Shown here one piece after another: positions 3,991-50,800 of a stretch of 64,000 nucleotides of DNA (within the stretch, counting starts at the first letter, position 1; every line of letters starts with the position of its first letter). Origin of the DNA: Amoebophrya sp. A120 (Eukaryota; Protista; Dinoflagellata); NCBI GenBank assembly GCA_905178155.1, contig CAJINV010000008.1, positions 1,798,001 to 1,862,000 on the forward strand. The letters are read 5' to 3'. The notes under the pieces were generated by a model. The model saw nothing but the letters and a program-made list of their open reading frames with translations, was not told the origin of the DNA and ran no database searches. A program made the position numbers and the translations under genes.

Positions 3991-6900
3991 CTATGAAAAA
4001 TTCGCCGTCCGAAGGCGATTGATACAGCAGGCTATTTCCAATTTTCGAGGTTTTGCGTAGAAACCCTGCGGGCGGTCCCACCTGCTCAGCACGTCCAGTG
4101 CCAACGGACTTTCGGCCAGCAAGCTGTCGAACTTGTCCAAGAGCTGGGAGAAAGAGCTGCTCTCGTCCACGATCTGCTTCTTGACTTTGTTACTATAGTC
4201 GTCGCCCAACAGCTGCAAAATATCCGTCAGCGCCTTGGCCTGCGACAGCTCGACCAGCTGCTCGACGTAGGTTAGCTCGACCTCTTCCTCTCCGTACTGA
4301 ATGCAGCGCAGGTTTCGGGCCGACGCCTTCCCGTCTGCCGCACAGTTTGTATTGTTGTTCAAACGCCGCGGACGGAGCGCCGGAAAGCTGCCTGTTAGTT
4401 TATTTTCGATGGGGGGGGTGAACAAAGCTAGTTGTAAAGATCACGACGATCGTTGCATCGCGTCGTAGCTGCAGCGGGAAGGGCAATGGCAAACAAAACT
4501 ACATACACATTTCGTTCGCTTAAAAGAACATAGTCAAAGTTGCAAGAAAGTCGAGCCCAGCCGTGCAGGCCAAAAAACAATGAAGCAAAGAACCTTCACT
4601 CCTCCCGTCCAGGGTGGAGTCCCAAAACTTGGTGGAGGTGACGATCTTTTTTGCCTCGGCCGTCACGTCTTTCGCGATGTAGTTTTCTAAACACAGCACC
4701 GTGTCGGCCTTTTCGAAGAAATCGCCGCTGGCGCCGACCACTAGGATTGTCGACACCCTCGTGGTTTCGAACAAGGGGACGACTTTGTCGATGAAGGGCT
4801 GGATCGGTTCCTTGTTGTTCGCGACCAGCATTTGCATGCGCTTGTCCCGAATCATAAAGTTCGTCGCGCACGTGTCCTCATCCACGAGCAAACAGGTCGC
4901 TCCGGCTTCCAACGCTTCGCTGATATTCGCCGCCTGAGACGTGGAGCCGGACGCGTCTTGCGTGGTGAAGTTGGTCGTCTTCGCACTGTCGTTCGCGGTG
5001 GTGTTGGGAAGATTTTTGATGAAGGGGGAAATGTCGGTGTTCAGAACGCACCGGCCGTCCTCCGACCTCAGTTTGAACGCATTTTCCTCCGTGACGACCA
5101 ATTCGCGCCCGTCGTTCGGAATTTTGTCGTACACGCCGGTTTGTAACGCTTGCAACAGAGTGGACTTCCCGTGGAAGCCCCCACCGACGATGAGCGTGAC
5201 GCCCTTCTTGATGCCCATGCCGCGGACTTTGCCCCGATGGGGGAGTTCCACGAAAAACGCGGAACTTTCCGGAGATTCGAAAGGGACCACTTTGGCTCGG
5301 TCCATCGGCCGGTCGTCGTTTCCGGCCTTGCGGGGCAGAATGGCAGAATCACCGACGAACGCGACCAGGTCGTTGTCTGCACACCAGGCACGGAGGTGCT
5401 GCTGGTCTTCGACGCATCTGGAATTTAAGTTCGTCGTTCAAACTGATCATGATCAACCATTGCTTTTACATAGTTTGCTACAGCATATGCGTTGAACTAT
5501 ACTCAATCGAAGCAAACAAGGCGACAAATCTCTTTATACTGTAGATGTTTCCGAAGTGCAGCGTGATCCAAGTTTTGAAATATCAGTGCTTTCTGCGCGG
5601 TTTTCACTAGTGCGTCAAACGCCGCCGCCGCCTTTTTGCCTTCTGCCGTCCGTCCATGCGCCGGCAAGGCCAGCGTCGCCCGCACCTCGCAGTACTCGCG
5701 CATCAGAACCACGCAGGACCGCTGCAGCACGAACTGCGACGGCCGGTCGACCTGGATGTCTCCCCCCTTACTGCTGCTCCAGCCCGCGTTCTTCTCCGCC
5801 ACCTCGGTCCAGTCCACTCCCGACCTATGGAAGTGTCAGTATCGAAATTGGCAAAATCGAAAAATTTGTTATGCACAAAATCGATGCCAGTTGAAGCCTC
5901 AGTTTCCAAGTGGCGCATGACAAATTTCGGAAGCACCCACATCCGGTCTGTCATGCTGTTTGGGCAAAGAAGACTGCTCCTGTCATGCTACTCTGGTAGC
6001 ACATTGTATACCCCTAAACAGGCTTACAATTGGTCTCATTTGCCTGCTCCCCAATAGTACAGGCCTTGCGTGCCCTACATTTTACGCATCACAAATTTTT
6101 CGACTTTGCCGATTTCGATCCCGACACTCCCATACGACCCGCCGCGAAGGTAGTCGTTCACCACCCGCTGCACAAAATCCGCGGCCGCGAGGTTTTTCAC
6201 TTTTGTCTTCTTGTCCTTGCGAAAGTTGTCCAGCAAAAACGCATCGGGCCACTTCGCGACCGCGGCCGGAATGCGCACCCGCACGTGGCTATGGAAGCGT
6301 CAGGTTTAAAATCGACAAAGTTGAAACGATTTGTCATGCATAAAGTGGATGCCAGTTGGAAGACCAATTTCCAAGCGGCGCATGCCAAATTTTTGGAGCA
6401 CCGGAATCCAATTTGTAATGCTGTTTGGGCACAGAGGACTGCTTTTGTCATGCTCCTTTAGTAGCTCTGTCCCAAACCCTAAATAGGCTCACAATCTGCC
6501 TCACTTGCCATCCCGGCAAGACAGGCACTTCATGCCTTGCATTTTATGCATGGCAAATCATTTCAACTTTGACGATTTCAATCCTGACGCTTCCATAGTG
6601 GCTCGGCGGTGCGTACGCGTCGCCCTGCACATGGTCCACGTACACGGTATATCAACTGTAAAAATGTCTGGGTCTGGAAGATTTTTTCTAGATTTGCCAT
6701 GCATATTTTCCATGACCCATGATGTCTGTGATGCATGCCGTAGCATCACAGATTTTTAGAGCGCTTTGTGATGCCTCTACAGCATGAGAAATGACCTCTC
6801 CGCGTAGCACAAACTGGAGTCCTCTTGCTGGTCATGTAATACAAATTTTTTCAGAATTCAGAGACAGCATCACAAGTTTAGAATGTTCCAGACCCAGACA

Positions 6901-7144
6901 CTTTTACAATCCGTACGGTGAACTCGTCCTCGGCCCACTCCCCCTTCAAATCCTTGTACGACCCGTAACCCGCGCCCTCCAGGTTGTTCCAGCAATACTT
7001 CTGCAATTCCGTTTGGGGATGCGTCAGCTTGGGCTTCTTCGCGTCCGGTTCCTCGTCCTGCTGTTTGCCCCCGCCTTTTGACTTAATGTGCTGCCACCAC
7101 GGGTAGCCGCCGCCTCCCTTTTTGCCGCCGCCGCCTTTACCCAT
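3991..7144 (-). CDS. Predicted ABC-class ATPase (ABC_ATPase / MRB1590-like family), multi-exon
   Basis: Walker A GGGFHGKS, Walker B LLVDEDTCATNFMIRD, DASGSTSQAA. N-terminal YVDHVQGDAYAPPSHVRV is reconstituted after removing three inserted elements (5826, 6290, 6650). Two conventional-looking introns near 4430-4594 and 5418-5538. Confidence 0.88.
5826..6134. mobile_element. Introner-like TIR element, family C (309 bp)
   Basis: TIR TATGGAAGTGTCAG.../...CCGACACTCCCATA. TSD CGACC at 5821-5825 and 6135-6139. Removal gives DYLRGGS|GVDWTEVAEK. Confidence 0.92.
6290..6597. mobile_element. Introner-like TIR element, family C (308 bp)
   Basis: About 55-bp TIR TATGGAAGCGTCAGG... TSD GTGGC at 6285-6289 and 6598-6602. 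Removal gives YAPPSH|VRVRIP. Confidence 0.93.
6650..6915. mobile_element. Introner-like TIR element, family B (266 bp)
   Basis: TIR core TGTCTGGGTCTGGAA / TTCCAGACCCAGACA. TSD CGGTA/CGGTG (1 mismatch). Removal gives DEFTV|YVDHVQGD. Confidence 0.9.
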
Positions 7145-8193: not shown

Positions 8194-10264
8194 TTACTTC
8201 GCCGGCAGCTTCTTCATGTCTGCGTCGACACTCAGATCCACCTCCCGGATCACGGGCATCTTCATTTCCGTGGCGTCTTCCGGCGTTGGCACGGCGTTCA
8301 AGGCCTGCGCGCCCATCTCCCATCGAAGCATATCACTGCTGTTCCACATGCGATGACCTGGGACGATGTGCAAATAATTGTAATTCTCTCTCGCGCATAG
8401 CGAAACTGCACTTGCGGTTGCGACCATGAAAATGGTCACGACCATAAAATGGTTGGAGTAAGTACATCATTTATCACCACCAGTAGTACCTCTCTCAAGC
8501 AACTTGATGTCAAAGACGTCGTCGACATCCGGATCCTTGGCGAAAATCTCCTTGTGATCCTTGTAACTTTCGTCCACCCAGGAATTCCCGTACGTCACGC
8601 GAACCAGCATGAAGATCTGGTCGCACTCACCGCAACGGTACAGAAATCCCTCGCGGCAGTGGAAGCTGATTAAGTATTGTTGACGTCGGTTATGGTTCGT
8701 CCATGTCGATGTCCTCAACAATCAAATTGCTCGTGCGAAAAAAATAGATGTTGACGTACTAGCTAGCAAACGCGAAATTAAAAACACAAACACATCAAGA
8801 TGAGCAAAAGTAACGATACAACATCGCGTCGTGTTCGTTATCACCAGTGCCGCCCGTACAACACACCTGGCGGATATCCGAAAGGGAGGGCACTATTACC
8901 GGGTTCTCGACAGTCCCGAAAGGCCCGATCATGGGCGAGCTTTTCAAGTATTCATACAATTCGATGATCCCCATGTGGTGTTCCAAGACGTCGGAAGAGT
9001 GTGAAAGGAAAACTTAGTATTTGTCAACTTGCTTGTCCAACCACGTGGCTGTGGCATGCAACACAAAATAGGAACGCAAGACAAAGACTCGCTCGTTTTT
9101 TTTGCCATAAAACCAATGCATTCATTCTTTTTCTCGCTGTGCGCTCGAGGAATGACAGAGGATCCTGGTGCACGGCAGCTCCGAGCTGCGCACCAGCAGA
9201 AAAAGAAATAGACAACTCGCATGACAACAGCACGCCTACGCGGTTGAAGACACTGCTGAAGAAAAATCACAGACATTGTTTTCCGTACCACTACTGGCAT
9301 GCCCATATCGTACGCTAGCTGCTTGTACCTGTTGTAGAAAAAGTGTGACAAAGAAAATCCATATTCATCGCCAGCAACTTCTTGCTTCGTCGCCAGCAAC
9401 TTCTCGATTTCCGTCGAGTATCTATTGGTTTCACGACATGCAAACGCAGGTCACCCGCAGCATCAGCAAGAGTTACTTGATACGTGAGCGTGACGAGCCT
9501 CTCCGGGTGCATGATTGTGGATTCCTTCCGAATCCGCCAGTACCAGTAGTGGTCCAGAAAGTCAAACTCCCGCTTGCTCGGATCCTTCTATGCAGTGAAA
9601 ATAGGTGGTTGGTTCAGATCTGGAAGACGAAGACTGGGTAATGCTTGGCTAGCATTATACACAGTCGATTCTGTAATCACGCATGCTGGTGCTGCGCAGA
9701 CGAGGGTCGACTGTTTTTTATTATTCTTTGTCAAGATGTATTCGAAAAACCCGAGTTCTCGTGCACCGGAGCTAGAAAACTCGTCCTGCGTAGCTGTGTA
9801 GTGCTCGGCCTGCTTGCCATTTACAGGATGACGTTGCAAATCCCTAGTCTTCAGACGAACCCGTCGTTTTTCCGTGTGGATAGCTTTAAAATCTCCTTGA
9901 TATCAATGGGCATGGAATGCGGCGGCAGCGTAAAATCATCCACCGCGGGTGCGTGCCAGTGTCGGTAGTGCCGAATCTGCTGTTGTGCGCCTGGTCGTAA
10001 AAGTGGTGATCTGCAAGAACTCCGGTTCGCCCTTGGATTGTTGCGGAGCCGCAACGCATTTCCGTTGTGATTCGGATTGTTCCAGTGCCCCCCTAGTATC
10101 TTCCCGCCCGCCGCAGACCCAACTGCCACATGCGTCCTCGAGGTGGCCGGAACAAACGCAGCCCTTGGGTTGCTTTGCACCGGTGACGCTGATGCGCTGG
10201 ACCAGAAACGCCGAAAGGTCGTGCACAGCGATCCCGAGCGAGGTACCACAGCAGAGGCGACCAT
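8194..10264 (-). CDS. COX5B: Cytochrome c oxidase subunit 5b (myzozoan type), multi-exon, with N-terminal mitochondrial-targeting-like peptide
   Basis: [22 protein letters not shown] followed by [20 protein letters not shown] (Zn-binding Cys motif). Arg/Ser-rich N-terminus. Several GT-AG introns. Confidence 0.85.
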
Positions 10265-12316: not shown

Positions 12317-15300
12317 TCAGTTGTGTGCTGGTACAGAGCCCGTACCGCACTGGTGCATCATCATCGTCCCACTATTCCCGGCGCCCCCCGCGCCGGCCGC
12401 TAGTATCAAAGAGAAAAATCCCCCCTCCCCATATCAAACAGGCACGTTTCCGAAAATTTGCGTTGCTGATTTGAAGTCACAAATAACGCTTGTCTTGCAA
12501 GAGGACAAGGGCAGAAGCTTCCGCCCCATTATGGAAGCGATTTGTCATGCTGTTGGGCCTAAAGGAAAGCCGTTTGCCATGCTGAACAACTAGACCCATA
12601 CGCCCCTATCCAGCCTGGGGATCTGGCCGCAGTGCCTCCTCGCAATACAAACCCGATTTGTGTACACAAATCCAGCATCAGAAATTCCGTTTTGATATGG
12701 GGAGGGGGGATTTTTCCTCTCAATAGCTAGCGACGAGGAGTTGCTGCTGCTGCTCATTCCCGGCGAACTGGTCTATCGTAAGGAAAAACGTCCCCACCCC
12801 AGAGTTGTCATGCAAATGTGCAATGACAGGAAAATTTGTGCTGCACAGCTCCATGAGGGGCATTTCCAATCAGGTTTTGGATTTTGTAATGCTGTAAACA
12901 GGATGAGAAAACGGCTTTCTCATGCGGCTTCCCTTGCCAGCCAGCACTACACCGCAGAGGCAAACTTGTCATGCACAGGTCGCAAAACTTGGAGATTTGT
13001 GTTGCTAGATTCCCAACTTGACTATGGGGTGGGGACGTTTTTGCTTCGGATATGGTCAGATTCGTTGTTACCGTGCGGAAGTAACCATGTGACTGCAGCT
13101 CGCTCATCGCTGGACGCTTGTGCGGATTGTACTGAAAGATTTGCTGCTGTTATCCAATAAAAGAAGCGGAGTGTATAGTCTGTGTTTGTGTTGGTTGAAC
13201 ACACAGAGGACTGTTACTTATTGACAATTGCCATTTTCATCTTGAGTGCACCTCGCTACGTCCAATAGGAGACTTCTGCACGAATCGCACCGCAACGCGC
13301 TCACTCTGCTCGCACTCTGTATCTTCACTGGCGCTGTCAGTGTAGGACTGTCGCAAACTTCTAACACCCTCTTTTTTCTTGAATAGCAGGAGATCATAAA
13401 GCAGCGGTAAATCCTCAGGAGCGACCGCAGGGGTATTCGGGCGCGCGTTGTGCAAGTGAAATCGTGAGTCAAGCTGATTGTAGTACTACTGGGTTGTAAC
13501 CGATTCTTGATTCGAATCTAAATCTACCAAGCAACAGAAATAAGGAAACAATTTTCTTTTGCGCATGACAAGTGCGCGTACCTGAGAAGATACCAACGCT
13601 AGCACACCCCACACTAAACCATGGAGCAATCGAAATGACTCACAAGACAAACAAAGTTGATGTCCTCAGCATGCAGAGCTTCAATAGACCCGATACCACA
13701 CTGTACTTGACCCGAATAGGAATCTGCCATGCATACGCGCTAAGCCATTCTTCCACCGGTTTCGCGACGAATTTTGGATACTCCGGTGAGAAATAGGGCA
13801 ACTGCGTCACACCGGTCCACTCGCAAAAGGCTGGAGAACCTGCGGCACGGTAAAAGTTGTATGGTTCAATCGAAGAACTTCGGCTTTCATCAGAATGAAT
13901 GCTGCTCGTTCAGAACGTTCCACCTCATGCATCGCTCTGCGTCGTGATCAGGGATGACCACGACCACGACGCGTCAAAGGCGACATTTCTACAGTGGAGC
14001 ATGCACCATGAACCTCAATACAGCCTCGTAGGTATGCTAGTAATACACTACGCGTGCAGCTATGGATGTAGCAATGAAAAATCGGAAAAAGTATCCTGTA
14101 CCGATGACACGGAAAATCTGGAAAATCGTGCCAATCTCACTGTCCCCCACGAACACCGGTGCCCCGTCGTTGGCGAGCTCCCCAAACACGCAGCCGAAGG
14201 ACCAGAGATCGATGCTGACCGTGTACTTTTTTTCGCCAAGCAAAATCTCGGGTGCACGGTACCACAGCGTCACCACCTCGTGCGTGTAGTTGCGGACCGG
14301 CGCCTGGGTCGTGTGCAAATTGATTTCTTATAAGACAGCGACTCATCACTTACTGATAGACCAAAATAACGGCTTGGAACAAGTAGAGCACGCACTTGAT
14401 AGCAGCATGATCCTAAGCCGCTGTACCGAAAAAGCGCGAGCAAGGCCGAAATCGGCGATCTTGACGTTCTGCATGTCCCAACTGATCAGGACGTTCTGCG
14501 GCTTGATGTCCCGATGAATGCGGCTATGGAAAGGAAATATCGCACAGTCTTAGACATATTATTCAGGAGAGACGTAATTGACGCCCATCTTCAGGTACCA
14601 AGATTTTTGGCGCCGCATATGTACATGGTTGGAGCTCTTCGACTACATCTGCGACGGCGGGTAACAAGGAAGGAATAAACGTAGTCATAGCATGATAATC
14701 TTTAAGACGCCGTCGATATCACGAGCTGAAGAGAATTATCACTCGAAGCAGTTGATAGATTCCCGATGCGTCCCGTAGCGAAAAACTCGTACGAAATTCC
14801 TCTCTGATACATGCGGTGCTTGTGGAGGTGCGCCAGCCCTATGCGTTGTAGTGGTTGTTCTTGCTTTGTTCTTGTTAGCGATCAGGGTAGCAAAACATAC
14901 TAGTACATAATCTAAAAAGTGCAGACATTGAGGGTGACTGATTTTCATGCCGCGAACACCTGCTTATCGCTTTCACTTTTTTTTCTCGGGTTGTAATAGA
15001 TACCGTCGAGCATCATTTTCCCAACTCGTTTCAGTGGTTCCCCGCACATTTTCGGCGCCGACTGACTCTTCATGAACTGCCTCAGGTCCGCATCCATGAA
15101 CTCAAAAACCAAGTGCAAAAAACCCCCGTTGCTTTTCACGTCGGAATGCACGTCCTTGAGCTTGATGATGTTCTCGTGGTTGGCAACCTCGTGCAGAAAA
15201 CACACCTCCCGCAGCGCTGTGGACGGGATTCCCTCGTCATCTTCTGACGAGAATGCAATACCTGACATCAAGAACGCATGGTGTTCTGCTTCTGTTTGTG

Positions 15301-15939
15301 CTACGACCCGTCGGAGAATAAACTTTCGTGATGCCCGAACATCATAGAAAAAATGTTTATGTTGTTGTGGAAGATATTGACACTCGTGCTGGGAATCACA
15401 TCAGAGCTCTGGAACTGTGTCTCTTGCGTAAGCATGCAAAAGAAATGTAAAAAAGTAAAAAAGCACGAGGCTGTAGATACGTTTCAGCGCGACGAATTCC
15501 TTTGTCTGCAAATCTTGTGCCTTGTACACGGTTCCGAAGGTGCCTTCGCCGAGCTTGTCGAGCCGCTGGTAGAAGCTTTCCAGCGCATCTATCCTGCGCA
15601 AAAACGTCCCCACCCCAGAGGTGTAATGCAAATCTGCTTGCCAAAAAAGTTTGCCATGCGGGGCGCCATGAGAGGCATTTTCTACTCGTGTTTTGAGATT
15701 TATGATGCTATAATCCGCATGATATACTAGATCTGTGCTGCTGCTGAACTACCTAAACAGGATCACACTACGAGGACAAACTTGTCATGCCAAACGAGCA
15801 AAGCTGGCTGATTTGTCTAGCAGATTTCCCATCTTGATTCTGCTGTGGGGACGTTTTTGCAAATGATAGCATCCGCCCCATAGTTTAGCGACAACTGGTC
15901 GCCCCCGCCCTCGAACAAGGTTCCCACCGCCCGCGCCAT
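12317..15939 (-). CDS. Cyclin-dependent kinase (cdc2-related), multi-exon
   Basis: [93 protein letters not shown]. The ATG at 15939 and stop at 12317 are obtained after removing three inserted elements. Confidence 0.92.
12404..12725. mobile_element. Introner-like TIR element, family D (322 bp); interior partly similar to family C
   Basis: About 35-bp TIR TAT....GAAAAATCCCCCCTCCCCATATCAAA. TSD GCTAG at 12399-12403 and 12726-12730. Removal gives SSSLA|AGAGG...HN*. Confidence 0.88.
12774..13052. mobile_element. Introner-like TIR element, family A (279 bp)
   Basis: TIR TATC......AAAAACGTCCCCACCCCA. TSD TGGTC at 12769-12773 and 13053-13057. Removal gives TTNLTS|SPGM. Opposite orientation to the copies at 18629 and 48418. 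Confidence 0.92.
15590..15868. mobile_element. Introner-like TIR element, family A (279 bp)
   Basis: TSD GCATC at 15585-15589 and 15869-15873. Removal gives MARAVG...NYGADA|[17 protein letters not shown]. Confidence 0.93.
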
Positions 15940-17081: not shown

Positions 17082-20000
17082 TTACAGCCCCCCGCTGTTG
17101 GAGTACCGCGAGTTGTCGACCTTTCTCTCGTCGTCCGGGTGCAGCTCCGCGTTTGGCTCCTGCACCAAGTGGTCCGGCATGGGGGCCGGCGGCAGTTCGA
17201 ACCGCACCGCCGCAAACTGGTCCTGCTTCGGCACCTTTGCGTCCCAGGCCTTCTTGACGGTGTACTTCTCGCGCTCGTACTTGACCGCCATTTTCCCGAA
17301 CTGGAACACGCGGGAAAACTCGGCGAACAGACTCTTCTTCGTCTGATGCTGCTTGCGCCTCTTCTTCTTTTCCCGCCGCTCCTTCGCCCGCTGCTCCGCG
17401 TCCGAGTTCCGGAGGTCGGCAATCACCTCCTTGCCCGGCTCCGGCCGCCCGCTCTGGTTCACGATCTCCTTCTGCCCCGGCGGCCGCGGCCGGTTCTGCC
17501 GCGGCATGAACATGAGCTTGCCGCCGTCAAACGTGTGTATCTCCCGCATCTCCCGCCGCAAAGGGTCCTCCTCGATCGGCGTAATCTTGTTTCCATAGTC
17601 CCGGTTGCCGTCCTTGTACGTGAAAAAAGTCTCGTGCTCCTCGACCATCGCGCGCGACGGCAGCGCGAACCTGTCATTTTGTACAAGGTTTAAATTTAAT
17701 ATGCTGGCGAAATTGATCATACTGTGAGTGTGACGGCTTTCTATTATTTTTCCAACTTCATGTAACAAGAAGTTGCTTGGTAAAGCTGCACGGTGCTCTT
17801 GCGGATCGCGAATGCCACACGGACTAATGATGGGGAATAGAAGCGCACCACTCCTGCGGATTTGAGAGCAGTTCGCCGAATTGTCATTAAATGATACTAG
17901 CAGTAAACTGAAGTGGATGAGGAGCGTCCTTCTGGTGGTGGTGTGAACAAGTAAGTACTATTAAAAGCCCGCTATCATGTTTGTTTGCAATTCGAAACTA
18001 GGGAGGAACAGAGCCGCAAAAACAAAAAATTAATCAGAAAACCTGGCCAAGTCGCTGGGGTCCACGGTTGGTCGGGGGTTCCAGAACCTCGGGCGGAATT
18101 CCAGGTCGAAGCGTATTCTGCCCTGCTGGCTCATGCGCAGCGGGCGGTCGAACTCGAACACGCCCGGCTGCCACAAAGACTCGCGCAGGGTGCGGAAACT
18201 TAAAAAGATGACGCCGAGCGGGATGTGCCGCTTAGGCACGGCCGGCATGGCCACGTTCTGGTAGCCCCGCTTGCGCATGACCTCGTGAAAGTTCTTCAGA
18301 CTGAGCCACACGGAGTCTTCCATGGTGCGGACCGGAATCGGCTTCGCGAAATCCGCCTTGAACATGGCCCGGTCGGCCTCCAGTTGCGAGGAGAAGGCCT
18401 GCAAGTAGTCCTCCGTTTCCTCCGTCGCGGCTGGCCCGCCGGCGCCGCCGATCCCGCCGGCCGCACTGCTGGCGTTCAACGGATTCGAAGCGCCGCGCGG
18501 CCCGTTTTCGTCCTCCACCTCGATACCGCCCACGTCCACGGCCGCAGCCGTGTCGATCCCGATCTCCTTCTCCGCCGGCCGCATGGCCTCCTTCATGTGG
18601 TCCAGCTGCGAAGTGTCCTGGGTGCCCATATCCTGAGTTAATCCGTACCCACACCAGAGTCAGGATGGGGATTTTGCAACACAAGCCTAGGAGTTTTGTG
18701 AGTCATGCATGACAAGTTGCACTCTGCAGTGTAGTGCAGATTAGCAAGTGCAGCCGCGTCACAGATTCGCCTGCTCATCCTGTTCACAGCATCACAAATT
18801 CCAAAACACGATTGGAAACGGCTCTCATGGGGATGCGCGTTACAAGTCTTCCTGTCTTTGCAAGTCTGCATTACAACTCTGGTGTGGGGACGTTTTTACT
18901 CAGGATAGCCCAGAAAGTGGATACTCAGAAAGGAAAACTGGGTCAGCTTCTTCAACTGAAACGAAAACGTCTCGTTCCACACCGGATTCGGGTTCCCCAG
19001 ACAACAACTACTCGATGGGTCCATAGGAAAAGTCGTTACCGGCTCAAGTCAGATGACTATGACATATTATACGTGTTTATAGTTGATTTCGTTCTAACTT
19101 CTTGTATCGATTTTTTCCGTGTCATAAGAAACCACATGCAGATCCCATGTTGATATCAATACCTGAAAGGTGACTTGACTTCTAGAGAACTAACTTTTTC
19201 CAAAGGATATATGCAGATCTCGCTGTTTTCGTCAGGGTTGGCGGCAAACTGCAAGTAGGCGTTATGAAATGCAAAAGTGTCTGGGTCTGGAAGAATGCAA
19301 CTTGTCATGCTGATTTTGGATTCTAAAAAAATCTGTATTGCATGAGCAGCAGAGAGGTTCCAAGTTTTGCTACACGGAGAGAGCATTTGTCATGCGGTAT
19401 AGGCATCAGGAAGCCCTCACAAAATCAGTGATGCTAGGGCATGCATCACAGACATCAGGAGTCATGCAAAATGTGCATGACAAACCTGGCAATCTTCCAG
19501 ACCCAGACATTTTTACATTTGATAGGCGTAAGTGTTCAACGATGCGCTGTCCACCCCGGGGCACGCAAGATGCCTTCCATGCAGCAGAGACAGGATGATG
19601 CTACCTGAAGTGGGATTGAGTTTTCTTTTGCGAACGATCGTTTCTTGACCTGGATCAAGTTCTCCTATCTATGTATGGTTGTACTCGCGTCAATCACTGG
19701 CGAAGGAAAACGACATCGGCAAAGAGAAGATCCATTCGTCAGTGGACGCTACGGATACTTCCTTCGCTGCTGCGAACAAAGCAAAGAAAAGCCTCTCAAG
19801 AAAAGCACGACAGTGGTGCAGGGCCAGAGAAGCAAGTAAGTAGAGAAATACCGTCTGCATCGACGCCATTCAGCAGTTGTTTCGACGTGAGTCCGCGGGT
19901 CAGATCATGATCCCGCATTCCGTCGCAGATAATGTCGACCAGCGCTCGAAAGTTTCCGTCCTCCACGTCCATTTCGATCAATTGCGCGTGCGCCCCCTCT

Positions 20001-23000
20001 CGCGCCAGGTCGTAGGCTGTCTGCCCCGAAGCCGTCTTCCGGTTTAGGTCTGCCCCCATGTCGATTAGCAGCTGTGCCGCGTCGTTGCAACCCACCCGGT
20101 ATGAAAGCGAAAGGAAGTTTCTGTCAAGGTTGGAAGTTCGACGAGCGCACTCGGCTTGCTGGTCGTCGGGCCTCTCATTGCTCAAAAGACACGGCGTTAC
20201 CGGTAAATTGTGTTTTGCTTTTGGAATTGGATTTCACACAATTCACTGTAAGTACACAATCACATGTTTTTGCCTTCTGCATCTTCGAAACATGCCAAAA
20301 AGACTCCATTGTCGTGCCGAACTCCCTAGACTGACATCATCAAATCCTCCTTCAATCCCATACGTGCGTCGCCAGGTGCATGGGCGTCCACCCTGCGGCG
20401 TCCACTTCGTTCAGGTTTGCCTTGCAGTCCAGCAACGTGGCCACGCAGGCCGTTTCTCCCTCGTGGCAGGCCCAGTGCAGCGCCGTGTACTCATCCTTGT
20501 CCTTCATGTTCAAACTAGCGCCCGCGAGCACCAGTCCCGGGATCAACGACCAGTTTCCGTCGCGCGCCGCGATCATCGCAGCCGTGGTCCCGTCGTTGGT
20601 TTGCGCGTTCACGTCGATCGATTCGAAGGCCAGGTGCTTGTTGGGCGTGCCAAATATCAAATGCAAAAATGTCTGGGTCTGGAAGAGTGCAAACTTGTCA
20701 TGCACATTTTCGATGCCCCATGAGGTCTGCAATGCAGGACCTAGCATGACAGGTTCTGCGAAGACTCTATGATGTCTATCCTGCATGACAAACTGCCGCT
20801 AAACTTGTTTAAACGTGGACAGCTTTTGGTAATCACGCAACACAATTTTTTGTACTATCCAGACTTAGCATGACAAGTTCCATCCTTCCAGACCCAGACA
20901 TTTTTGCAATGCATACCAAACAGGCTGGTGCAATCCTTGTTGACTAAAAGCAGGTTCACCAAATCCAAGTTTCGTCCGGAGCAGGCGTGGTGCAGCATGT
21001 TCTTCCCATTGCGGTCGACCGCACTCGCGTCGGCAACCACTCGGGTATCAAGGTGGAAATGCTTTTCGTTCTCTTCTCCCCGGACGGGTTCGTTCTTGTC
21101 CGATAACATGCATGACTTTGCGGCATTACGGTTATTGATTAAGTATTCTTTCACTTTTTTCCTGTTGTAGTGCAGCTGCATGTTGTCAGTCAAGGACATA
21201 TAAGAAGCTGCAACGCTTGCTTGTGCAGCCGCGTGTTGCAAAAAACCGGCGCGTGCTGGCTGCGACCACCAAATAGCAGATGAAAATGATATGCATAATC
21301 GACTTAACATTCACCCCCTCCTGCGGAGAAACAACACCATCAGTTTTCAACATTGCATACGGGTTGCGGCGATCGAGCAGTAGCAGTACGCAGTTCATGT
21401 TGCCGCGGCTGCAGGCAAGCAGCAGTGGCGTTTCTTCCTGCACGTTGCGGAAATCGACGGTCATTTCCGACAACCGCCGGGCAGCGTCCGAAGACTGGCC
21501 CAGCGCCGCTTCCTCGCGCTCCTTCAGCTGCCGCTCCAGCTCCAGCTCGGCCTTACTCTTGCGCATCCGCCGCTCGTTCTTCTTGCGCACAAAGTCGTGG
21601 AACTTCACCGTCTTGATGGGCTCTACCTTCGTCCCGTAGGCCGACCGCAGCTCCGCCTGCGCGGTGGCCCGCTGCTCCTCCAGCATCTTCTTCCGGGCCG
21701 CCACCTCCTCATCCGCCTCCTCGATCACGTAGGCCACCGAGTCCGTGAAGATGAACTCCAGCAGGTGCCGCAAGATCTGCCCGTTTCCCTCCTGGCAGGC
21801 CAGGTGCAGCGACGTGTTGTCGTTGCAGTCACCCTGCGTCACGTTCGGCAAAATCCGGGTCAGCAGCTCCACCTCCGCGAAACTACCCATCGTCACGGCG
21901 TGGCGCCTATCCCCTGCAAAAGTAACGCACAATTCGTGAAAATTCATATTCAAATTTTTGCAATACAAGTTATCATACTGCATGGCATATACAAGTTGCA
22001 ACTATTCCAGATCCAGCATGATCGAACTGCACCATCAGAATTACTGCACGAGTGCGGGACTTTTGCAAAAATGCGTAGTGCAGCGCGCACATGCCCTGCG
22101 GGTCCTTCCATCCCGTGACGTTTTTAATCTCGTCGCCGAAACCCAGCAGCACCTCGCCGAGCTCCTTGAGCAGCTGCGTCTGCACGGCGTAAATGAAGAT
22201 GTTCCATCCCCGCCCGTCCACCACATCCAGCTCGGGATGCTCCTCCAAAATCTGCCGCACGATCTTCCCGTTCCTGGTGTCCATCGCAAACATCAGGGGT
22301 GACCGCCCCTGCGGGTATCCCAGAAAAAAACTGCATCGGCACTACGACCTCAGCTTGTGTTACATACTGTTGCGGGAGGAAAATGCGAAAATCAAACGGA
22401 GGAGAAGAACCTTCATCAGGCACATGAAGCTTCATCTCCTCATTTGGAATTTTCGTACATCATGATCAGCATCTTAGTCCCGCTTCCGCCCGATCGATGC
22501 AAAGTCTGGTGGTGCAAGTGCGTTAGCATTCGCTGAAGATGCTACAACAATGCAAAGACAGGAGGGCGCTTGATGTAGCAGTGATACAGCTTTTTCGTCT
22601 CATAGCGAGTCGTACACGTTTACAGACGCGCTCATCCGAATCAGCATGTTAGCCATTTGCTCGTGCCCTGGAGTTGTCCAAGTGAAATCTTGAAGCAGAT
22701 GAGAACTTCGCTTCCAACGAGCATGCAGGACGACCGAAAAAAGAAAAACCTAGAAACGTTACGTTTCCTACTGTGGACCTCCCCACACATCATATGCAAG
22801 TCCAGACATTCCGTTTGCAAATGTAAATCTCCAACGAGTGTCGAAATTTTGCCCTTCCCGTCTGCCTCAAGATTTCACACACGTACAGTCGACGACCACG
22901 TGAAGCGGAAAGGTGAAAAAGGCGTCGTGCACCTCCACCTTCGCCCCGGCGCACAGCAGCATCGCCAGCGACTGCGTTTGTCCGTTCTTGCAGGCGGCAA

Positions 23001-24850: not shown

Positions 24851-25314
24851 TCTGCTTTTTTCTATACTCGGTCAGGTCATCTCCGTCTCACTTTGCAAAA
24901 CAAACCACTCCATCCTGATCTTAGCACTTTCTTTCACGCATAGACGCCAAAGACCAGGGCCTGCTGTTACTGCGTTAATTGGTTTACGTGCAGAGAAAAA
25001 ACTCATGGTCTCAACTAGTAGCCCAAGAAAAAGTGCAAGCCGTAGCTTCTTCTTCTGCGTCGAACCCGGCAAGCTCCGCTATGCAAGAGAAAACCGCAAA
25101 ACGAGGGCAATAATTTCGCAGAAAAATTCTTTTTAGATATTAACTTGCTAACAAACACAATGAAAATTTGCAACGAACTGCAGCAATAGAAGTATCTATA
25201 ACTCCTATTGCTGAGCTGCGCGAGTTAAAACTTTGCGACGGGGAGGAAAATCGCCCACGCCGGAAATTTTTTGACAATTTTGAAACTTTCCAAAGCTGTC
25301 GCGATTTGCGAAAT

Positions 25315-25750
25315 CGCCCACCGCCCAACGGCCAACGGCAACCGGCCAAATCGCAAACGGCCAACCGCCAACCGCCAACGGCCAAATCGCAAACGGCCAA
25401 ATCGCAAACGGCCAACGGCCAGCGGCCGAATCGCAAACGGCCAACGGCCAAATCGCAAACGGCCAACGGCCAAATCGCAAACGGCCAACGGCCAAATCGC
25501 AAACGGCCAACGGCCAAATCGCAAACGGCCAACGGCCAAATCGCAAACGGCCAACGGCCAAATCGCAAACGGCCAACGGCCAAATCGCAAACGGCCACCG
25601 GCCAGCGGCCACCGGCCAAATCGCAAACGGCCAACCGCCAACCGCCAACGGCCAAATCGCAAACGGCCAAATCGCAAACGGCCAACGGCCAGCGGCCGAA
25701 TCGCAAACGGCCAACGGCCAAATCGCAAACGGCCAACGGCCAGCGGCCAT
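25315..25750. repeat. Minisatellite built from GGCCAAC (7 bp) and GGCCAAATCGCAAAC (15 bp) subunits, modal unit 22 bp
   Basis: Directly visible tandem array. A higher-order block starting near 25342 recurs near 25612. Confidence 0.95.
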
Positions 25751-25754
25751 TTTG

Positions 25755-26050
25755 CAGCTCGGAATATTTTCAAGCTCGAAATATTTCCCAGCTCGGAATA
25801 TTTCCCAGCTCGAGATATTTTCCAGCTCGAAATATTTTCCAGCTCGAAATATTTTCCAGCTCAAAATATTTTCCGGCTCGAAATATTTTCCGGGTCGAAA
25901 TATTTCCCGGGTCGCAATATTTTCCGGCTCGAAATATTTTCCGGGTCGAAATATTTCCCGGGTCGAAATATTTTCCGGGTCGAAATATTTTCCGGGCCGA
26001 AATATCTTCCGGGTCGAAATATTTCCCAGCTCGAAATATTTTCCAGCTCC
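25755..26050. repeat. 17-bp minisatellite GCTCGAAATATTTTCCA / GGTCGAAATATTTTCCG (about 17 copies)
   Basis: GCTCG recurs at 25808, 25825 and 25842 (period 17). Each unit contains the palindrome AAATATTT. Confidence 0.95.
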
Positions 26051-26243
26051 AAGGTATTTTGCGACGCAAAATATTTTGCAGGGTCGCTCGGATCTGCGCG
26101 ATCGCGTGGCGCTTCCTTAATGAAATTTCTAAGGAAAAAAAAACTGCAGCCCAGCTGGAGAGCAACGCGATCAGGCGGCCGAAGACCGAAGGCGGCGATC
26201 GCATCCCTGCAAGCTGTGCGTGGATTGTCGCCTGTCCTACTGC

Positions 26244-26817
26244 GAAATCTTTCCCCTGGGTAGCCAGAATTGCTGTGCTAAACACAGCAACTCGGGAAAA
26301 ACAAACAAAATTTCCCTCCCCTTGCCCGTACCTTCCCACTATGCCAATATCCCCTCACTATCCTGATACCCTCCCAGTACCCTCCTGGGAAATCTTTCCC
26401 CTGGGTAGCCAGAATTGCTGTGCTAAACACGGCAACTCGGGCAAAAGAGCGAACTTTTCCCATCCGTTGCCAATATCCTCCGACTATCCTGAAGACATCC
26501 TCCCACTATCCTATTGGAAATCTTTCTCCTGGGTAGCCAGAATTGCTGTGCTAAACACGGCAACTCTGGAAAAAAAAATATCCTCTCACTATCCTGATAC
26601 CCTCCCAATATCGTACTGAAAACCCGATCCCCGGGTAGCCAGAAGAGCTATGCTGAGCGCGCCAACTACTAAAAAGAAGCAAACTTCTATCATTCGGCCC
26701 CAATATCCTGGCACTAGACCGGTAGCCCCCACTTACCCCAATGCCTTCCCATTAGGCCATTGTCTTCCCCGGGTAGCCAGAATAGCTGTGCTAAACACAG
26801 CAACTCGGGGAAAAAAA
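26244..26817. repeat. Five degenerate copies of a ~50-bp hairpin-containing repeat, period 102-145 bp
   Basis: GGGTAGCCAGAATTGCTGTGCTAAACAC(A/G)GCAACTC cores start at 26258, 26403, 26531, 26633 (degenerate) and 26771. Confidence 0.9.
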
Positions 26818-26839
26818 CCGAAAAGCCCCGACGTCCCCC

Positions 26840-35406: not shown

Positions 35407-36397
35407 GTGGTAAACATGCCGCCTGTATCTGCTGAGCTGCAGATGGGAAAAGCCGTGGCGCTCTCCGTACTTTTCTCGTTACGCTTACGCGACAAAAGGT
35501 CTCTATCACCATAAGGCAGCCTATCTACACTGTTGCACTAGCGCAAACAACATGCTGGCTGAGGGCACCTATTCCTAACTCTATCGTTGAATAAATAAAA
35601 GGAATAGCCTAGTCGAAATCCTCTAAGCTGTACAAAGCACAGGGTTTTCTTGTGTCCAAAAAAACCCATGCGCTTTCACACTCGGGCACTCCAGGGACTG
35701 GAATACCAGCCCCAGAATAACCTGACTTGATGGTGTAATCAGGGTTCAAACTCAACCTGCGTCGGACCACCTCCCCCCTTGAATTTGTACCACAGGGAGG
35801 GGGACAAAAACCCCAAGACGAGAAGAAACGATGGCAAACGCCATGCGTTTGCTCTCGTTTCCATCTTCCCCCTCCAGCGTGTATTAACACGAGGCAGAAA
35901 CTGCAGCAAAAGCCAAGTTTTCTAAATGCCGCAGCAAAAGAGCCTGAGAACTCTTGCAGCCATTCACAAGTTGTGTCAGACTTAGTCTCAGATGGGCAAA
36001 GCGAACCAAAAAGACCTTTCTGTCGAAGAATCAGCCGTCACTTTTGAAAAACGAATAGCTTTCGGAATTCCTCTCGTCGATCACACACACGCTGCATGAT
36101 GTCATCTAATAGACAAAAGGCCTCAGTTGTGTTCGTGTTTCTGGTGTCGTCTCTATTGATATTGTCATGCAAAATCCATTCAAAGACAAAGAAATCAAGC
36201 AAACACGGAAACAGAGACTAAGATGAAAATAAACAGGTACTTATCTTCATCTGAGTAAGTACTTCCTTGAATGAAAAATCATCATCACCAGTATCGCGCA
36301 TCCTGAGCTGTAGGAGGACGTCGACTACAACAGACACGAACAATAAATTCAGTATTCTGCCTTCAAGTTTTCATTTGAGGTAGCTTGCATAGATGAT

Positions 36398-37724
36398 CTA
36401 TGTCCTCCTTGACCAATCGTCTTTTGCACAGTTGCTCGCAAATTTGCAACAATACATGATGCGCGTTAGCCACTTGATATCTAAATTACGCACATCCTCG
36501 ACGTAAGTGTCTGGCTCTTCGTCGTCATCATCGTCGAGTTGCTGCTCTAGTGATTTTTGATCTTTCGGAGGACCATCTGAATCCAGATCACCTGCCCCGT
36601 ATCTGCCGGTGGAAGAAGAAGGCGCCGTGCCCCGTGTGACCCATTGGTTCTCGTTTCCCAACCAGATCCGTTCATGTTGGTCCTCGGAAACCGATCGAGG
36701 TAAAGGTGGGCCTTGGCTTGTAGTTGTGCGCGTTGAAAAAGGTGCAGGAGTTGACGCCCCTGAAACCCGCGTCGGCCTTGGACGCGAAAGAGCATCACCA
36801 GAGGGTCGAGCGCTGATCGGGTACCGTGTCTTCGGTGACTCCAACAGTTTGGTATTTTCGCTCTCCTGCGGCGAGTGGGATATGCTGGGTCGTCCCTGTC
36901 GGTTTGCATTTATCAGAAGGGAATCTGCTGGCACCCATGGATGCCTCAGGCATACCATCTGGTTTCTACTCTTACTTATTGCCCTAGGTCCACAATAATG
37001 CGCACGAGATCAAAATCAACCCTTTGCTCGCAGCTTATGGTGTGCGAGTGACTGTCTCCTGAAGTATGCAGCTAATATAGCAAGTTTTTTACGCTATAAC
37101 AATCAAACTGAAAATCAGTGAATCTCGAATGTTCCTCGAATGCGGCAAATCAGACATGGAAGATTATACTTATAGAGCGTTCAGTTCCTGTACATCGTCA
37201 CAATCAGATGAAATCTCACGCAACATAGCCAGGCAGACTGTGCAGCAGCACGTTTGTTTCTTTTGGAACCCTTTGAAAAGGATAGATAAAGATGGGATAG
37301 ATAGCAGAAAAGGATAGATTGATACCGCCGGCTGGGTTCTCGTCACAGTTCCGGGCCGCCCCACCTCTTCCCGGCGGCCCGACCTGCTCAGGGAGAGCTC
37401 ACTTTGTTGAAGAGACGCACGGACATGCGGAGAGCCTGCAAGTCCTGGTGCTGATGGTATCCTGGTGCTCGAAGCAGGAGAGACACCAGGCGAACGCGGT
37501 GGCGCACGTGGAGAACCGCTACCGGTTCGAGCACGGGCAGCAGCAGGCGCCGACTGAGCCCGAGCATGCCCAGCACCACCAACTACACCCGGCTGCCCGT
37601 ACAGCGGCCGAGGCTGCTCAATTCTCGCAGCAGGAGAACCCTGGGTGATTCCAGGCCTGGGGGCTCCCAAGCCGTAGGGTCCACTGACGGATTCCTCCTT
37701 CCTGTCGAGCTTTGTCCTAGCCAA
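36398..37724 (-). CDS. Hypothetical Pro/Ser/Arg-rich protein (probable two or more exons)
   Basis: ORFs 37170-37724 and 36398-36958 are both low-complexity and co-oriented; no motif recognised. Confidence 0.35.
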
Positions 37725-46300: not shown

Positions 46301-46899
46301 GTTTCTTGAGAGACGGAGAATGCAAACGAAAATGTTTTGGTGCGCAAGAAGTAGTTCTTCTGCCCTGCCAGCAGACGTTACTGCAAGCGTATTTTCATCT
46401 TCTCTGGTATTTACATCTGATTCGACGTGCGACGAGAAGTCCTAAGACATATTTGCTCTCATTCATACTGCAGCACGAGAAACGACGAAGTGGGCCACAT
46501 CCCGAAGAGCCTCGTACCCCGCCGCAAAAAGGGACTTCGCGATGCCACCACGGTCGCAAAGCCCCACACTGGCAAGCGCCCAAAGTGCAGTGCCAGCTGC
46601 TGCTCCACTTGCTCTACTTCCGAGGTCATGTGTGTGTCAGTAGAAGACGCCGAACAGTAAGCACCGGTTGACGAAGATGTTGAGGAGCTGGAAGCCCCAC
46701 CACAGGATGTCTTTCCCCTTCCGCGCGGGAAAAAGTCCCAAAACTGCATTTTGTCGCCGAGAACGGCGTAGCTCAGGTTGTTGGCCGACAACGCAAATTT
46801 CTCCACCTGCGCCAGCGCCTGCCCGTCCTGCAGCAGCACATCCTCGCTGGTGACGAAGCGGGTCTGCGTTATATCCGATCGCTGGATCAAGAGATCCAT
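43328..46899 (-). CDS. DUF2855 family protein, multi-exon, with long low-complexity insertions
   Basis: VEKFALSANNLSYAVLGDKMQFWDFFP, GRLPVWGFATVVAS, LLQPLFPTAFFLEDW..FFDADTLVITSASCKSA, LLDFAGN, SVGDTH and FFAPAWI match the DUF2855 pattern as I recall it. Confidence 0.78.
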
Positions 46900-47846
46900 G
46901 ATCGTGGCAGAAAACCTCGTTCGAGACCTGCACTATCACGGGACAGCACTCGGTGGCCGCTTTTGCAGCGACACTGTTTGTACTATTTGAGGTACTCTTC
47001 TAAACGCTGTGGTACGAGTGGTTGCTCAACTCTCATTCTCTCTGCATATGGCCTCAGATCAGAGTATCTGGCGTCAGCTTGTGGTGCAATTAGCAGTGTA
47101 ACCTCGACGACTCAGCCACATTTTTCTCGGAACGTAACAAGTACTTGGTCTTCACGTTGAATACGTCTCGATCTCACTTTTGTCCTGCCGTTTTGATGTT
47201 CTGTGATCGATGATCTTTACTCTCGCTCGCGGAACACGAACATTTCAAGGGCACTTCTTCTGTTCTCGTGTAGCAGAACGAGCAACATGTGCCCTTCGAG
47301 TGCTGCCGGATTCATCTTCAGTATCAGTAACTTGGAATTCATGGTGACACTTGCAAAGAAAACCCACCGCCGATGTAGCACTAGCTACTTTTACTTGTTG
47401 CTTACGCCAAATCATAAACCAGGAAGCTTTTGACAGTGTCATTTAAACACAGTTCACTAAACCCAACCACCTGCTGTCATCAAAATGAGTACATCAAAGG
47501 AAAAAAACGTGTGTGTGTGAACCAAAATATCGCTTTTGCTTTTGAGTAAAGATACTTTTGTTGTCCTGATGGCCTTCAACTGAATGCCAACGTTATCCTT
47601 ATTTTTGTTCATTCTGCAAAAAAACTCAGAAAGATAAATTCTCATCCCGCTCCCAATTAGCCCCGAACAACCACTCCGATATATCAAACCACTCCACGAC
47701 ATGGGCGGCGCAAACGACCTTTTTCATCGGAAAGCCGATGACAAAAAATCGGCTCCAGCTCTTCATTTTGACAACACAGAAAGAGAAAAGACCTCAAGTA
47801 GCTACACAGTCGTCGACTCCAGCACAGGGATCCTCTGAATTCCTCG

Positions 47847-50800
47847 TCACGCTGCCGCGCTGATCTTGGAAAGGATTTCCCGGGTTTCGCTCTTCAGGTT
47901 TTCTGTCGCAAGCATTTCCGTAATGGTTTTCTGCACCTTCGTTGCAAACTCTTCGGTGATCTTGGTCTTGCACTCAAACGCCCGCGAGAGTCGTGCGGCG
48001 ACCTGCCCGTTGCCGTAGTTGTCCAGCGCGAGGATCTGTTTCTTCACAAAATCCCTACCTTGATCGCTGTGGAAGAGCTTGATGTTTCGAATCGCCGAGC
48101 CGACCACTGACCGAAATCGGTTCGGATTGGAAACGGTAAACTCCGGGTGCTTCGTCAAAGCCGCAACCTGGGGAATGGCATAGGTTGTTCAATCACAATC
48201 TGAATCTTCGTTTTTCAACTGCATCAAACATTTCAGTTTATTTTTCCAGTCACTTCACTAAGCAGGTCCAAGTGGAGGTGGAGGTGCCCAACAAGAATAA
48301 ACAGAGACATTATGCAATAACTGCCCGTGCTTAAGCATGCAATTGGCGTACCTGATCAAAATTGCTTGAGAACGCCGCCTGCAAGGCGAACCACTTGTCC
48401 ATCACTGGACCGGAGCCTATCCTGAGTAAAAACGTACCCACACCAGAGTCAGGATGAGGATTTTGCAACACAAACCTAGGAGCTTTGTGAGTCACGCATG
48501 ACAAGTTTCAGTCCGTAAGGTAGTGCAACTTAGCAAGGAAAGCCGCATCACAAATCGACCTGCTGATCCTGTTCACAGCATCACAAATTCCAAAACACGA
48601 TTGAAAATGCCTGTCATGGGGATGCGCATTACAAGTCTTCCTGTCTTTGCAAATCTGCATGACAACTCTGGTGTGGGTACGTTTTTACTCAGGATAGAGC
48701 CGGATTTTTTCGCAAACTCGAAGAAGTCCGCCTGTGCCTTGGCCTGTTTGTTCTGCTCCACCAGGACCCGGAAGGCGGCAACGCGCTCCGTCATGGTCTG
48801 CGCAGCGAAGTACTGCTTCTCCGCCAGCTCTGGGTCTTGCAAAAGACCAAGCAGCGCGTTCTTCAGCAATCGGCTTCCGATCGCCTCCTGGGAAAGCGAG
48901 AAGCCGCTTGTCGTTGTGGCCTTCAGCGTGGCTTGATACCTGGTAGGGAGCAGAGGTTTTATTGCAAAATCCAATGAAAGAATCATGAATATAGGAACGC
49001 GAATTTTCTTCGCTTTGTTACTCTGCTAGGTAAGTAAGTACTTACTTCGCATTCGCAAGATTTTTCTTTCCATGTGGCCGCTCTGTGGTGCAGTAGACAA
49101 AAATGCATAGAAGATGCACTACCACTGCAAGTGCTCGTGTTGCGATACAAAAACATTCCGAGAAGTACAAGCTGTACAGAATGGATGCTGCCAAGTGCAA
49201 CTTACAGCTATTCGAGATCAAGAATCAAGTATTTCTGCATTATACCTTTGCTTAATCTCCTTTCCCAATTTCTGCACGATCTTTTCCCGCACCAGCTCGA
49301 CGCTTTTGTCCAGCAGGATTGGATATGAAATGCAAAAGTGTCTGGGTCTGGAAGATTCTGAGAGTTGGCATGCACGTTTAGCATGAGCCGTGATGTTTGT
49401 GATGCAGGCCCTAGCATGACAGATTTTCTGAGGACTTCTTGATGCCTATCCTGCATGAGAAATGTCCTCTCCACGTGGCAAAAACCTGACTCCTATTGCT
49501 TGTCATGCAACACATCTTTTTTTAGAATCCAAAAATAGCATCACAAGTTGCATCCTTCGAGACCCAGACATATTTGCAATGCATATCGGATCCACCTTCG
49601 ACCCGTAGCCCACCATGAGTCCGCTCACATCCGGCAATGCCAGTGTCTTCCCGAGCGCCAGCGCGGAAGAGGATTTGTCGTCCAGCAAAAATTTTATCGA
49701 CTGGAGCAGGTAGTCAAGTTTCTCCGTGACGCTGCTTTTGTTTTTCTCGTCCAGATAGGCTGCCTTCCCCTGGCTGTTCTCGTACACGTCGTAGATGACT
49801 TTGGTGCAGAGTGCGTCGAACGCGTTGTACTTGCAGTACATGTCCGTGTCGAACGCCGCCAGGGAGGACAACTCCTTCACCGTGTAATCGTAGTAGAGCT
49901 TGATGGGCGCGCCGAAACCACGATTCAAAGACGGCACCACATCATCAAACTCAACGCCGGGGGGGAGCTGTGTGTTAGTGCTTGATATGCACACTCTTGC
50001 TTTAAGATTAAGGTCTTTTTTCGCTACTTATCGTGCCGGAACTTCCAACCATGAATGAATCTCCACCGGAAAAGACGTGCCAAGAAGCCGATAAAGAAAC
50101 AAAAAGAATAAGATCAAATATCCTAAACCCTAAGACCCTCAAAACCCTATCGACGCTGGTGTCGGACAGGGGCGGAAACAGGACGTAGATCGTAGGGAAG
50201 AAGATGTGGCGGAGGGGCGTAGGACGGCCTGATCAGAGAAAGCGCGCAAAACGCATGTTCTGAACCTAAAAATACTATGTGAATATACCCAACCCGAAAA
50301 AGATAATACGACACCGGAAGGTGTCGCGCCCCAATCCCAAAAAATTACTGCTTGGTGCCAGTAGGGCCCAGGGAAAAACAAAAGGCAAACAAGAGGAAGG
50401 CAAGGTAAAATCTACTTTCAAAAAGCGCTAGTAAGCCTTGTGCTCTGATCCGTCCGGGCGTGCACTCCCATCTGGTTCTAAAGCTTCAGCAGTGCTGAGA
50501 GCGCTCCGACCCTAAACCTCAAGGCAAGCCAAGAGATCTACGTACGTATGCGCACGAGCAAGGCAGGAATATTGCCTGATGTGGGCGAATATTCCTAACT
50601 AAAATCAAAAACGACACTCGTACCGGAGGTACACCTCAACGGAATCGATACGAGCTACAAATCGAAAAAGAATAAGAAAGACTGTGTTCCAACACGGCAT
50701 AATAAGTCATAAGTACCTCAACGACCACCGAGCCGGTTTTGTCCGTGAGGTGAAACACCTCCAAGTTCGCGTCCCCGGCGGGGTAGATCTGCTTGCCCGT

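Follow-up and report, generated by a model that had tools for sequence, protein, structure and literature searches.

Introners in a 64-kb window of the Amoebophrya sp. A120 genome

We analysed a 64,000-bp stretch of the genome of the dinoflagellate Amoebophrya sp. A120 (contig CAJINV010000008.1, forward-strand positions 1,798,001 to 1,862,000; hereafter the window, in whose coordinates positions are given unless another locus is named). It holds 11 intact inverted-repeat elements of 261–322 bp in four families, A (279 bp, four copies), B (261–266 bp, four), C (308–309 bp, two) and D (322 bp, one), and inside these elements an internal word, GCAT(G/C/T)ACAA(A)T, is enriched ~98-fold. The elements are the introners of PMC7789003, and introners themselves are thus already published; published sources enter here as extracts, and statements on them hold for those extracts. 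Both here and in the published set (PMC7789003; PMC12130899) they are non-canonical introns with inverted repeats of the form TAT-N7-As and short direct repeats at their boundaries; PMC7789003 describes the A120 repeats as TAT, seven loose bases, then As. The host, the TAT-N7-AAA tips (90 ends of 45 elements, family C excepted), a repeat within the range of 3–5 nt, removal from transcripts and the occurrence in repeated families all agree with that description, and the sizes found here and at three further loci described below (147–322 bp) agree with the A120 families listed.

The window elements were found via their inverted repeats. All 11 start with TAT and finish with ATA or GTA (TA..TA termini), and their target-site duplications (TSDs), each of 5 bp, are perfect in nine cases and carry one mismatch in two. 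They are as follows, with the positions and strands of the internal word given as sites (TIR, terminal inverted repeat).

C1, 5826..6134: TSD CGACC; sites 5866 (−), 5915 (+), 5948 (−), 5980 (−), 6086 (+)
C2, 6290..6597: TSD GTGGC; sites 6331 (−), 6380 (+), 6413 (−), 6445 (−), 6516 (+), 6548 (+)
B1, 6650..6915: TSD CGGTA/CGGTG; sites 6694 (−), 6726 (−), 6743 (+), 6782 (+), 6836 (+), 6867 (+)
D1, 12404..12725: TSD GCTAG; sites 12458, 12490, 12542, 12574 (−), 12642, 12675 (+); joint 12398>12726 skips 327, the element plus 5
A1, 12774..13052, minus strand (reverse of A4): TSD TGGTC; six minus-strand sites from 12805, 12836, 12884, 12917, 12966, 12997
A2, 15590..15868, minus strand (reverse of A4): TSD GCATC; six co-oriented sites, partly degenerate; joint 15584>15869 skips 284
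A3, 18629..18907, plus strand: TSD GCCCA; sites 18676, 18707, 18756, 18789, 18837, 18868 (+); joint 18623>18908 skips 284
B2, 19263..19524, minus strand (reverse of B3/B4): TSD GGCGT; six sites, placed as in the rest of the family; joint 19255>19523 skips 267
B3, 20655..20915, plus strand: TSD CCAAA; sites 20695, 20727 (−), 20744, 20783, 20837, 20868 (+); joint 20649>20916 skips 266
A4, 48418..48696, plus strand: perfect 32-bp TIR, TSD GAGCC; sites 48465, 48496, 48545, 48578, 48626, 48657 (+); inside a minus-strand M1 aminopeptidase gene
B4, 49324..49585, plus strand: TSD TTGGA/TCGGA; sites 49365, 49397 (−), 49414, 49453, 49507, 49538 (+); in the same M1 aminopeptidase gene as A4

Over all 45 elements the 5-bp TSD is perfect in 33, matches at 4/5 positions in 11 and at 3/5 in one, the caller used at the further loci having demanded a match of at least 3/5; a 4- or 6-bp register gave a full match in none of the 45, the best 6-bp match being 4 of 6. 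The duplications are 60% GC, compared with ~51% in the window, as is expected for insertion into GC-rich exons.

Removal of the elements from transcripts

The host frames lie on the minus strand. Excising C1 with one copy of the TSD restores the minus-strand frame (its joint is not among the 15 of 45 joints listed), and within those 15 joints contigs of runs X1 and X3 skip D1, A2, A3, B2 and B3, each with exactly one TSD copy. We took X1 and X3 as spliced RNA since their contigs also skip GT-AG introns, so that their RNA nature is our guess; runs X8 and X9 placed only 16 and 4 reads on the window. The M1 aminopeptidase (50636–52894) is 100% identical to a database protein labelled Amoebophrya sp. 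A120 (P0001; the next match, A25, is at 69%), and the sequence of P0001 passes B4 and A4 without interruption. Within each of the pairs A2/A3 and B2/B3 the two elements point in opposite directions, and all four are skipped; removal is therefore orientation-free. A GT-AG, GC-AG or AT-AC register is lacking in 9/11 of the window elements. Separately, a few raw RNA reads of X8, which belongs to another study, match a B-type end and the adjoining motif near 19491–19524 with different flanks, so that B-type elements exist in that sample too.

Four other non-canonical joints were found, at which terminal pairing is short or decayed; sites of at least 8 bits are absent from three of the four.

8996..9288: decayed non-canonical intron, still skipped; three motif-like sites at 9058, 9076 and 9219
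9585..9883: decayed non-canonical intron that is still skipped, its tips being TAT-N7-AAA; sites of at least 8 bits absent
19014..19210: skipped non-canonical intron whose terminal pairing is short; sites of at least 8 bits absent
20094..20361: skipped non-canonical intron, its tips being TAT; one 9-mer with one mismatch (20309–20317), sites of at least 8 bits absent

Six canonical introns hold no site of at least 8 bits. The word is hence not required for non-canonical removal, which does not deny that it might help; the decayed introns that lack it may stem from lineages that never had it. Six further stretches that bear TAT tips or an end of type C (21908–22078, 22316–22604, 28439–28681, 36292–36468, 57190–57497 and 13440–13760) are probably elements in decay or what is left of them; those at 21908, 57190 and 13440 hold two or three motif sites (13531 and 13563 are 32 bp apart) and the other three hold none.

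An internal word under selection

The original prediction, made from the letters of the window, held that one 9-mer is shared by families with unrelated TIRs, in pairs at a conserved spacing of 31–33 bp. Each site that it had named carries the motif with 0–2 mismatches (two at 12458, 6836, 49507 and 18756), and the sharing was borne out both in the window and elsewhere (see below). Exact GCATNACAA occurs 30 times in the 3,106 bp of the 11 elements, against six times in the 60,894 bp of the window outside them, several of the six sitting in element remnants; in 300 dinucleotide shuffles of the elements its mean count was 0.27 and its maximum 2. An alignment of 64 sites reads G C A (T>A) (G>C>T) A C A (A>G) (A>G) T, so the motif is longer than the 9-mer and reaches ~11 bp (...ACAAAT).

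Conservation of the motif relative to its neighbours was the comparison on which the original prediction had staked itself. Within 37 copies in six groups, pairwise identity is 0.86–0.93 in motif columns and 0.56–0.71 in other internal columns; non-CpG columns taken by themselves, at 0.60–0.75 in the six groups, are also less conserved than the motif. Parsimony reconstruction in A, B and a further family, E, placed 50 motif changes on terminal and 8 on internal branches, compared with 352 and 190 for other columns, so that the ratio of motif to other change is 0.12 for internal branches and 0.42 for terminal ones (Fisher P = 7e-4). When uniform constraint was simulated on the same trees, the observed odds ratio was reached in 2 of 150 runs. 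Between window copies and their closest relatives in contigs, 6 of 40 differences fall on motif bases where 9 are expected (P = 0.17), so that the motif is not depleted of differences; because only 40 of 108 differences are covered, the power of this comparison is low. Constraint on the motif looks strongest in lineages that kept copying, a difference of degree that does not establish its vanishing after insertion.

Whether the word could act as a stem can be read from its inverted partners. Their middle base, which varies, is paired in 15 of 39 cases, which is the chance level (~0.37 expected), and because there is no such covariation and the sites of family A are only co-oriented, all six in each array, we regard the word as being read as sequence, not as a stem. 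A shared DNA-level site, read as sequence and under selection, is supported by these comparisons.

Independent copies and new families

Three loci totalling 25 kb (L001–L003), in one other assembly from a metagenome collection, were found by a motif-pair pattern. The pattern asked for a spacing of 34–36 bp, so the loci were not selected on 31–33 bp, and the three elements that it had picked were left out of the counts, for which the remaining 31 were used; these, 7,536 bp in all, contain 71 exact sites. A motif-blind caller, which imposed TA..TA termini on the elements of these loci, made 35 calls, of which 34 contain 2–9 sites. They comprise families A–D together with new groups of 147–282 bp, and removing the elements restores long frames, for example one of 435 codons across ten elements of mixed orientation. 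We dropped the call at L002 9791–9948 (weak TIR, no motif) and one in the window at 46408–47066 (no motif) as false. Neither the 34–36 bp nor the 31–33 bp pattern matched anything in viral contigs; four matches of the latter in prokaryote genomes (two tandem repeats, two lone pairs) were taken as chance.

The smallest family, E (L001 6491–6637 and relatives, 147–158 bp), has two co-oriented sites per end, facing inward (43+, 74+, 90−, 108−). A separate element, at L001 6710–6991, has one B-type end and one unrelated end and suggests that ends are swapped between families.

Spacing and layout of the sites

With each family of the window reduced to a single site map, neighbouring co-oriented sites are spaced 31–33 bp in 9 of 16 cases (P ~1e-5, for any 3-bp window), the maps having been drawn post hoc, after the data were seen. 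At L001–L003, 30 of 89 per-copy spacings fall in this range, in copies that are related to each other; at the family level it is 6 of 23 spacings in eight new groups (P = 3e-4). Once the two groups with kinship to B and E are set aside, which leaves those least related to the window families, 2 of 16 spacings are 31–33 bp (P = 0.16) and 4 of 16 are 30–34 bp (P = 0.03). The conserved spacing that had been claimed therefore stands as the commonest one (the mode), but not as a rule. Spacings of 18, 39–40 and 48–49 bp and inverted pairs 16–17 bp apart also recur, and insertions of 3–8 bp between sites are tolerated in single copies.

The main peak agrees with the reading of 31–33 bp as three helical turns, but a 10.5-bp ladder does not account for the other 20 spacings (P = 0.16), and strict phasing at 10.5 bp was rejected as not significant. 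Periods of 10.0–10.2 bp fit those 20 weakly (P = 0.009–0.025, uncorrected for six periods). A 16-bp lattice of alternating sites was likewise rejected, as the remaining spacings do not fit it (P about 0.7–0.8).

Relatedness of the families

That the TIRs are unrelated was overstated: most share a 14-bp tip, and only family C, which starts with TAT and is without the A run, departs from it. Of 90 ends, 75 have G9, 77 have A11, 83 have A12 and 87 have A13, and an identical 14-mer terminates both B and E elements. At positions 4–14, 15 of the 90 tips score at least 6 bits as the motif itself. The further claim, that the sequence between sites is not conserved, held up. Unmasked interiors align across families (C-D, E = 1.6e-12; B-D, E = 6.8e-10), and with motif sites masked, which is a harsh test of interior similarity, that similarity is nearly gone (best E = 0.03). 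Common ancestry of the families is likely on these alignments, the surviving part being the motif scaffold.

Proposed mechanism and alternatives

Starting from what is shown, namely the ends, the 5-bp duplication, removal from transcripts whichever way the element lies, and conservation of the word by selection, we propose that the elements are non-autonomous TIR transposons which are spliced out as non-canonical introns, and that the 9–11-bp word is likely a repeated double-stranded DNA binding site of one mobilising protein, probably an integrase-type (Ginger/IS3EU-like) DDE transposase supplied in trans. The enzyme would cut at the TAY tip and make a 5-bp staggered cut in the target; further subunits would load on the 2–9 inner sites, with pairs ~32 bp apart preferred, and build a synaptic complex as at Tn7/IS1202-type ends. 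Families could then diverge freely between sites, and one enzyme would have many of them as its clients. What splicing would depend on is the pairing of the tips and not the inner sites, which would decay after insertion. The best candidate relative is A120 family 38 (~808 bp), annotated as "Ginger; 5-bp TSD, TA/TA termini" in supplement file 8, row 580, of PMC12130899 and compared by that annotation, not by sequence; its open reading frames (ORFs) have Copia/Gypsy integrase-like homology (PMC12130899, whose A120 table was covered for 41 of 58 rows).

Several observations weigh against this proposal. Among 30 of 120 window ORFs compared with Pfam and four compared with PHROGs, none is a transposase, and the window holds no kilobase-scale (autonomous) element; PMC7789003, as far as its extracts go, found no transposase in A120, took this to exclude general mobilisation by transposase, and left mobilisation and splicing unexplained. 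The layout of sites is more variable across families than at typical transposase ends: the first site lies 32–59 bp from the end in either orientation, and site number, orientation and end distance vary much between families. The decayed intron at 8996..9288 still has its three sites. Finally, the terminal-branch ratio of 0.42 is still below neutral, and a role after insertion would give the same.

It is unlikely, though not negligibly so, that the protein bound by the word belongs to the host, being a DNA-binding or architectural one that the elements have co-opted for mobilisation or for avoiding silencing (compare IHF at the ends of CRISPR-associated transposons, CAST), with the transposase reading only the tip. 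The selection pattern would be the same as under a transposase site, the loose layout across families and the separately shared TIR tip would suit it, and host-factor sites at transposon ends have a precedent (PMC10201428). However, the rarity of the word outside elements (the six exact copies in 61 kb, several of them in remnants) is unexpected for a general host factor, and the likeness of 15/90 tips to the motif suggests one protein for tip and inner sites. The original prediction had itself offered two kinds of factor, a transposase or one that marks the element for excision, and the latter is the weaker: we consider it rather improbable that the word flags the element so that it is removed from pre-mRNA, by way of a co-transcriptional DNA-bound factor or an RNA-binding protein that reads either strand, in place of a missing U1. 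The nine elements without a canonical register do call for an unusual signal, U1 was reported as undetected (PMC7789003), a DNA-level mark would be orientation-free, and constraint on terminal branches is not fully relaxed. On the other hand, of the four decayed non-canonical introns, all of them skipped, three lack any site of at least 8 bits; A3 and B2 are skipped although they differ from their relatives in ways that damage the motif; and it is the internal branches that show the stronger constraint.

Hairpins of 9 bp can arise from inverted sites at a distance of 16–17 bp, and the folds predicted for C1 and B3 have the TIR stem continued by subterminal sites; that the inverted copies merely lengthen RNA or single-strand DNA stems which join the intron ends is nevertheless very improbable, and largely refuted, since the six co-oriented sites of family A cannot pair mutually, the middle base pairs at chance level, and a stem could do without a sequence that stays fixed from family to family. 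We give hardly any credence to the word as a neutral relic of one ancestral element or 32-bp repeat unit: the unmasked C-D and B-D alignments and the shared tips do make common ancestry likely, but a relic leaves unexplained why only motif columns survive and why masking abolishes interior alignment.

Because constraint falls mainly on copying lineages, stems show no covariation and three of the four decayed spliced elements lack the word, it most likely serves mobilisation and not splicing. As to the single DNA-binding factor of the original prediction, a shared, selected DNA-level site, the co-orientation in family A, removal of A and B both ways round and the absence of covariation are consistent with it, the binding being putative.

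Relation to known systems

Repeated subterminal motifs bound by transposase-side proteins occur in hAT, CACTA and Harbinger elements. Repeated inner transposase sites are a known principle; what looks new is an inner word shared across introner families. The nearest working models are the Tn7/CAST and IS1202 ends and the Emigrant miniature inverted-repeat transposable element with Lemi1 (PMC1636448). Emigrant and Lemi1 provide a likeness, in that a transposase-side protein binds cooperatively to motifs repeated in the subterminal parts of a non-autonomous element, whereas binding is only proposed here; there, one family goes with one motif, superfamily, ends and TSD are different, and the element is not spliced with non-canonical ends. 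Tn7/CAST and IS1202 (PMC10201428, PMC10132070) also combine a short terminal signature with extra internal asymmetric transposase sites whose spacing matters, and the ISAjo2 group has a 5-bp TSD like the window elements. Those systems are bacterial, are not introns, and have TGT..ACA ends where we find TAY..RTA; their inner sites are ~19-bp copies of the TIR interior, whereas here a 9–11-bp word recurs at scattered places along the whole miniature element and resembles only 15/90 tips. Of the Tn7/IS1202-type features, the 5-bp TSD and repeated internal sites are hence present, and the TGT..ACA ends and TIR-interior copies are not.

IS3EU/GingerRoot and Ginger (PMC10045372, PMC6839031) share the TA..TA termini, and their likely mobiliser is likewise an integrase-type DDE enzyme. 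The TSD of IS3EU/GingerRoot is usually 6 bp, in contrast to 5 bp here, so that membership fails on TSD length; GingerRoot TIRs are 100–150 bp, and the extracts of these two papers describe no subterminal motif array for IS3EU/GingerRoot.

A120 introners as published have 8–20-nt terminal motifs, 3–5-nt repeats and 1,954 families, with no shared internal motif reported in the extracts; here, in contrast, TSDs have a uniform length of 5 bp and the families are tied together by one inner word. We found no description of the inner motif in literature including PMC7789003, PMC12130899, the review PMC11282704 and supplement text, figures and bioRxiv supplements lying outside this coverage.

Other features of the window

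Between gene clusters, positions 25270–27500 hold a tandem-repeat block (14/22-bp and 17-bp, then ~100–145-bp units). Intron-poor ORFs at 4520–5437 and 2591–3520 encode an ABC_ATPase P-loop domain (PF09818) and a CbiX domain (PF01903), respectively, families that are more typical of bacteria. At 53620–62795 there are three long uninterrupted minus-strand ORFs (958, 611 and 867 codons) with no Pfam or PHROG match and no intact introners.

Implications for introner biology

A120 introners are published as hundreds to thousands of families and tens of thousands of introns, making up 17% of the assembly. The inner word makes their mobilisation directly testable: it can serve as bait in pull-downs, as a search key for the autonomous element and as a means to regroup the ~1,950 families, and family E is a good minimal substrate for binding tests. 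Two signals are parted within one element, the inner sites being apparently tied to copying and the paired tips lasting in old spliced introns; since the tips persist there, the search for the unusual splicing signal narrows to the ends. We also entertain, more tentatively and with some doubt, that the so-called families are clients of a single undescribed superfamily of integrase-type transposases (TAY..RTA, 5-bp TSD), whose cargo would be set by a portable word array and not by TIR identity. If true, any short sequence with the tip and a word array would become a mobile, orientation-free intron.

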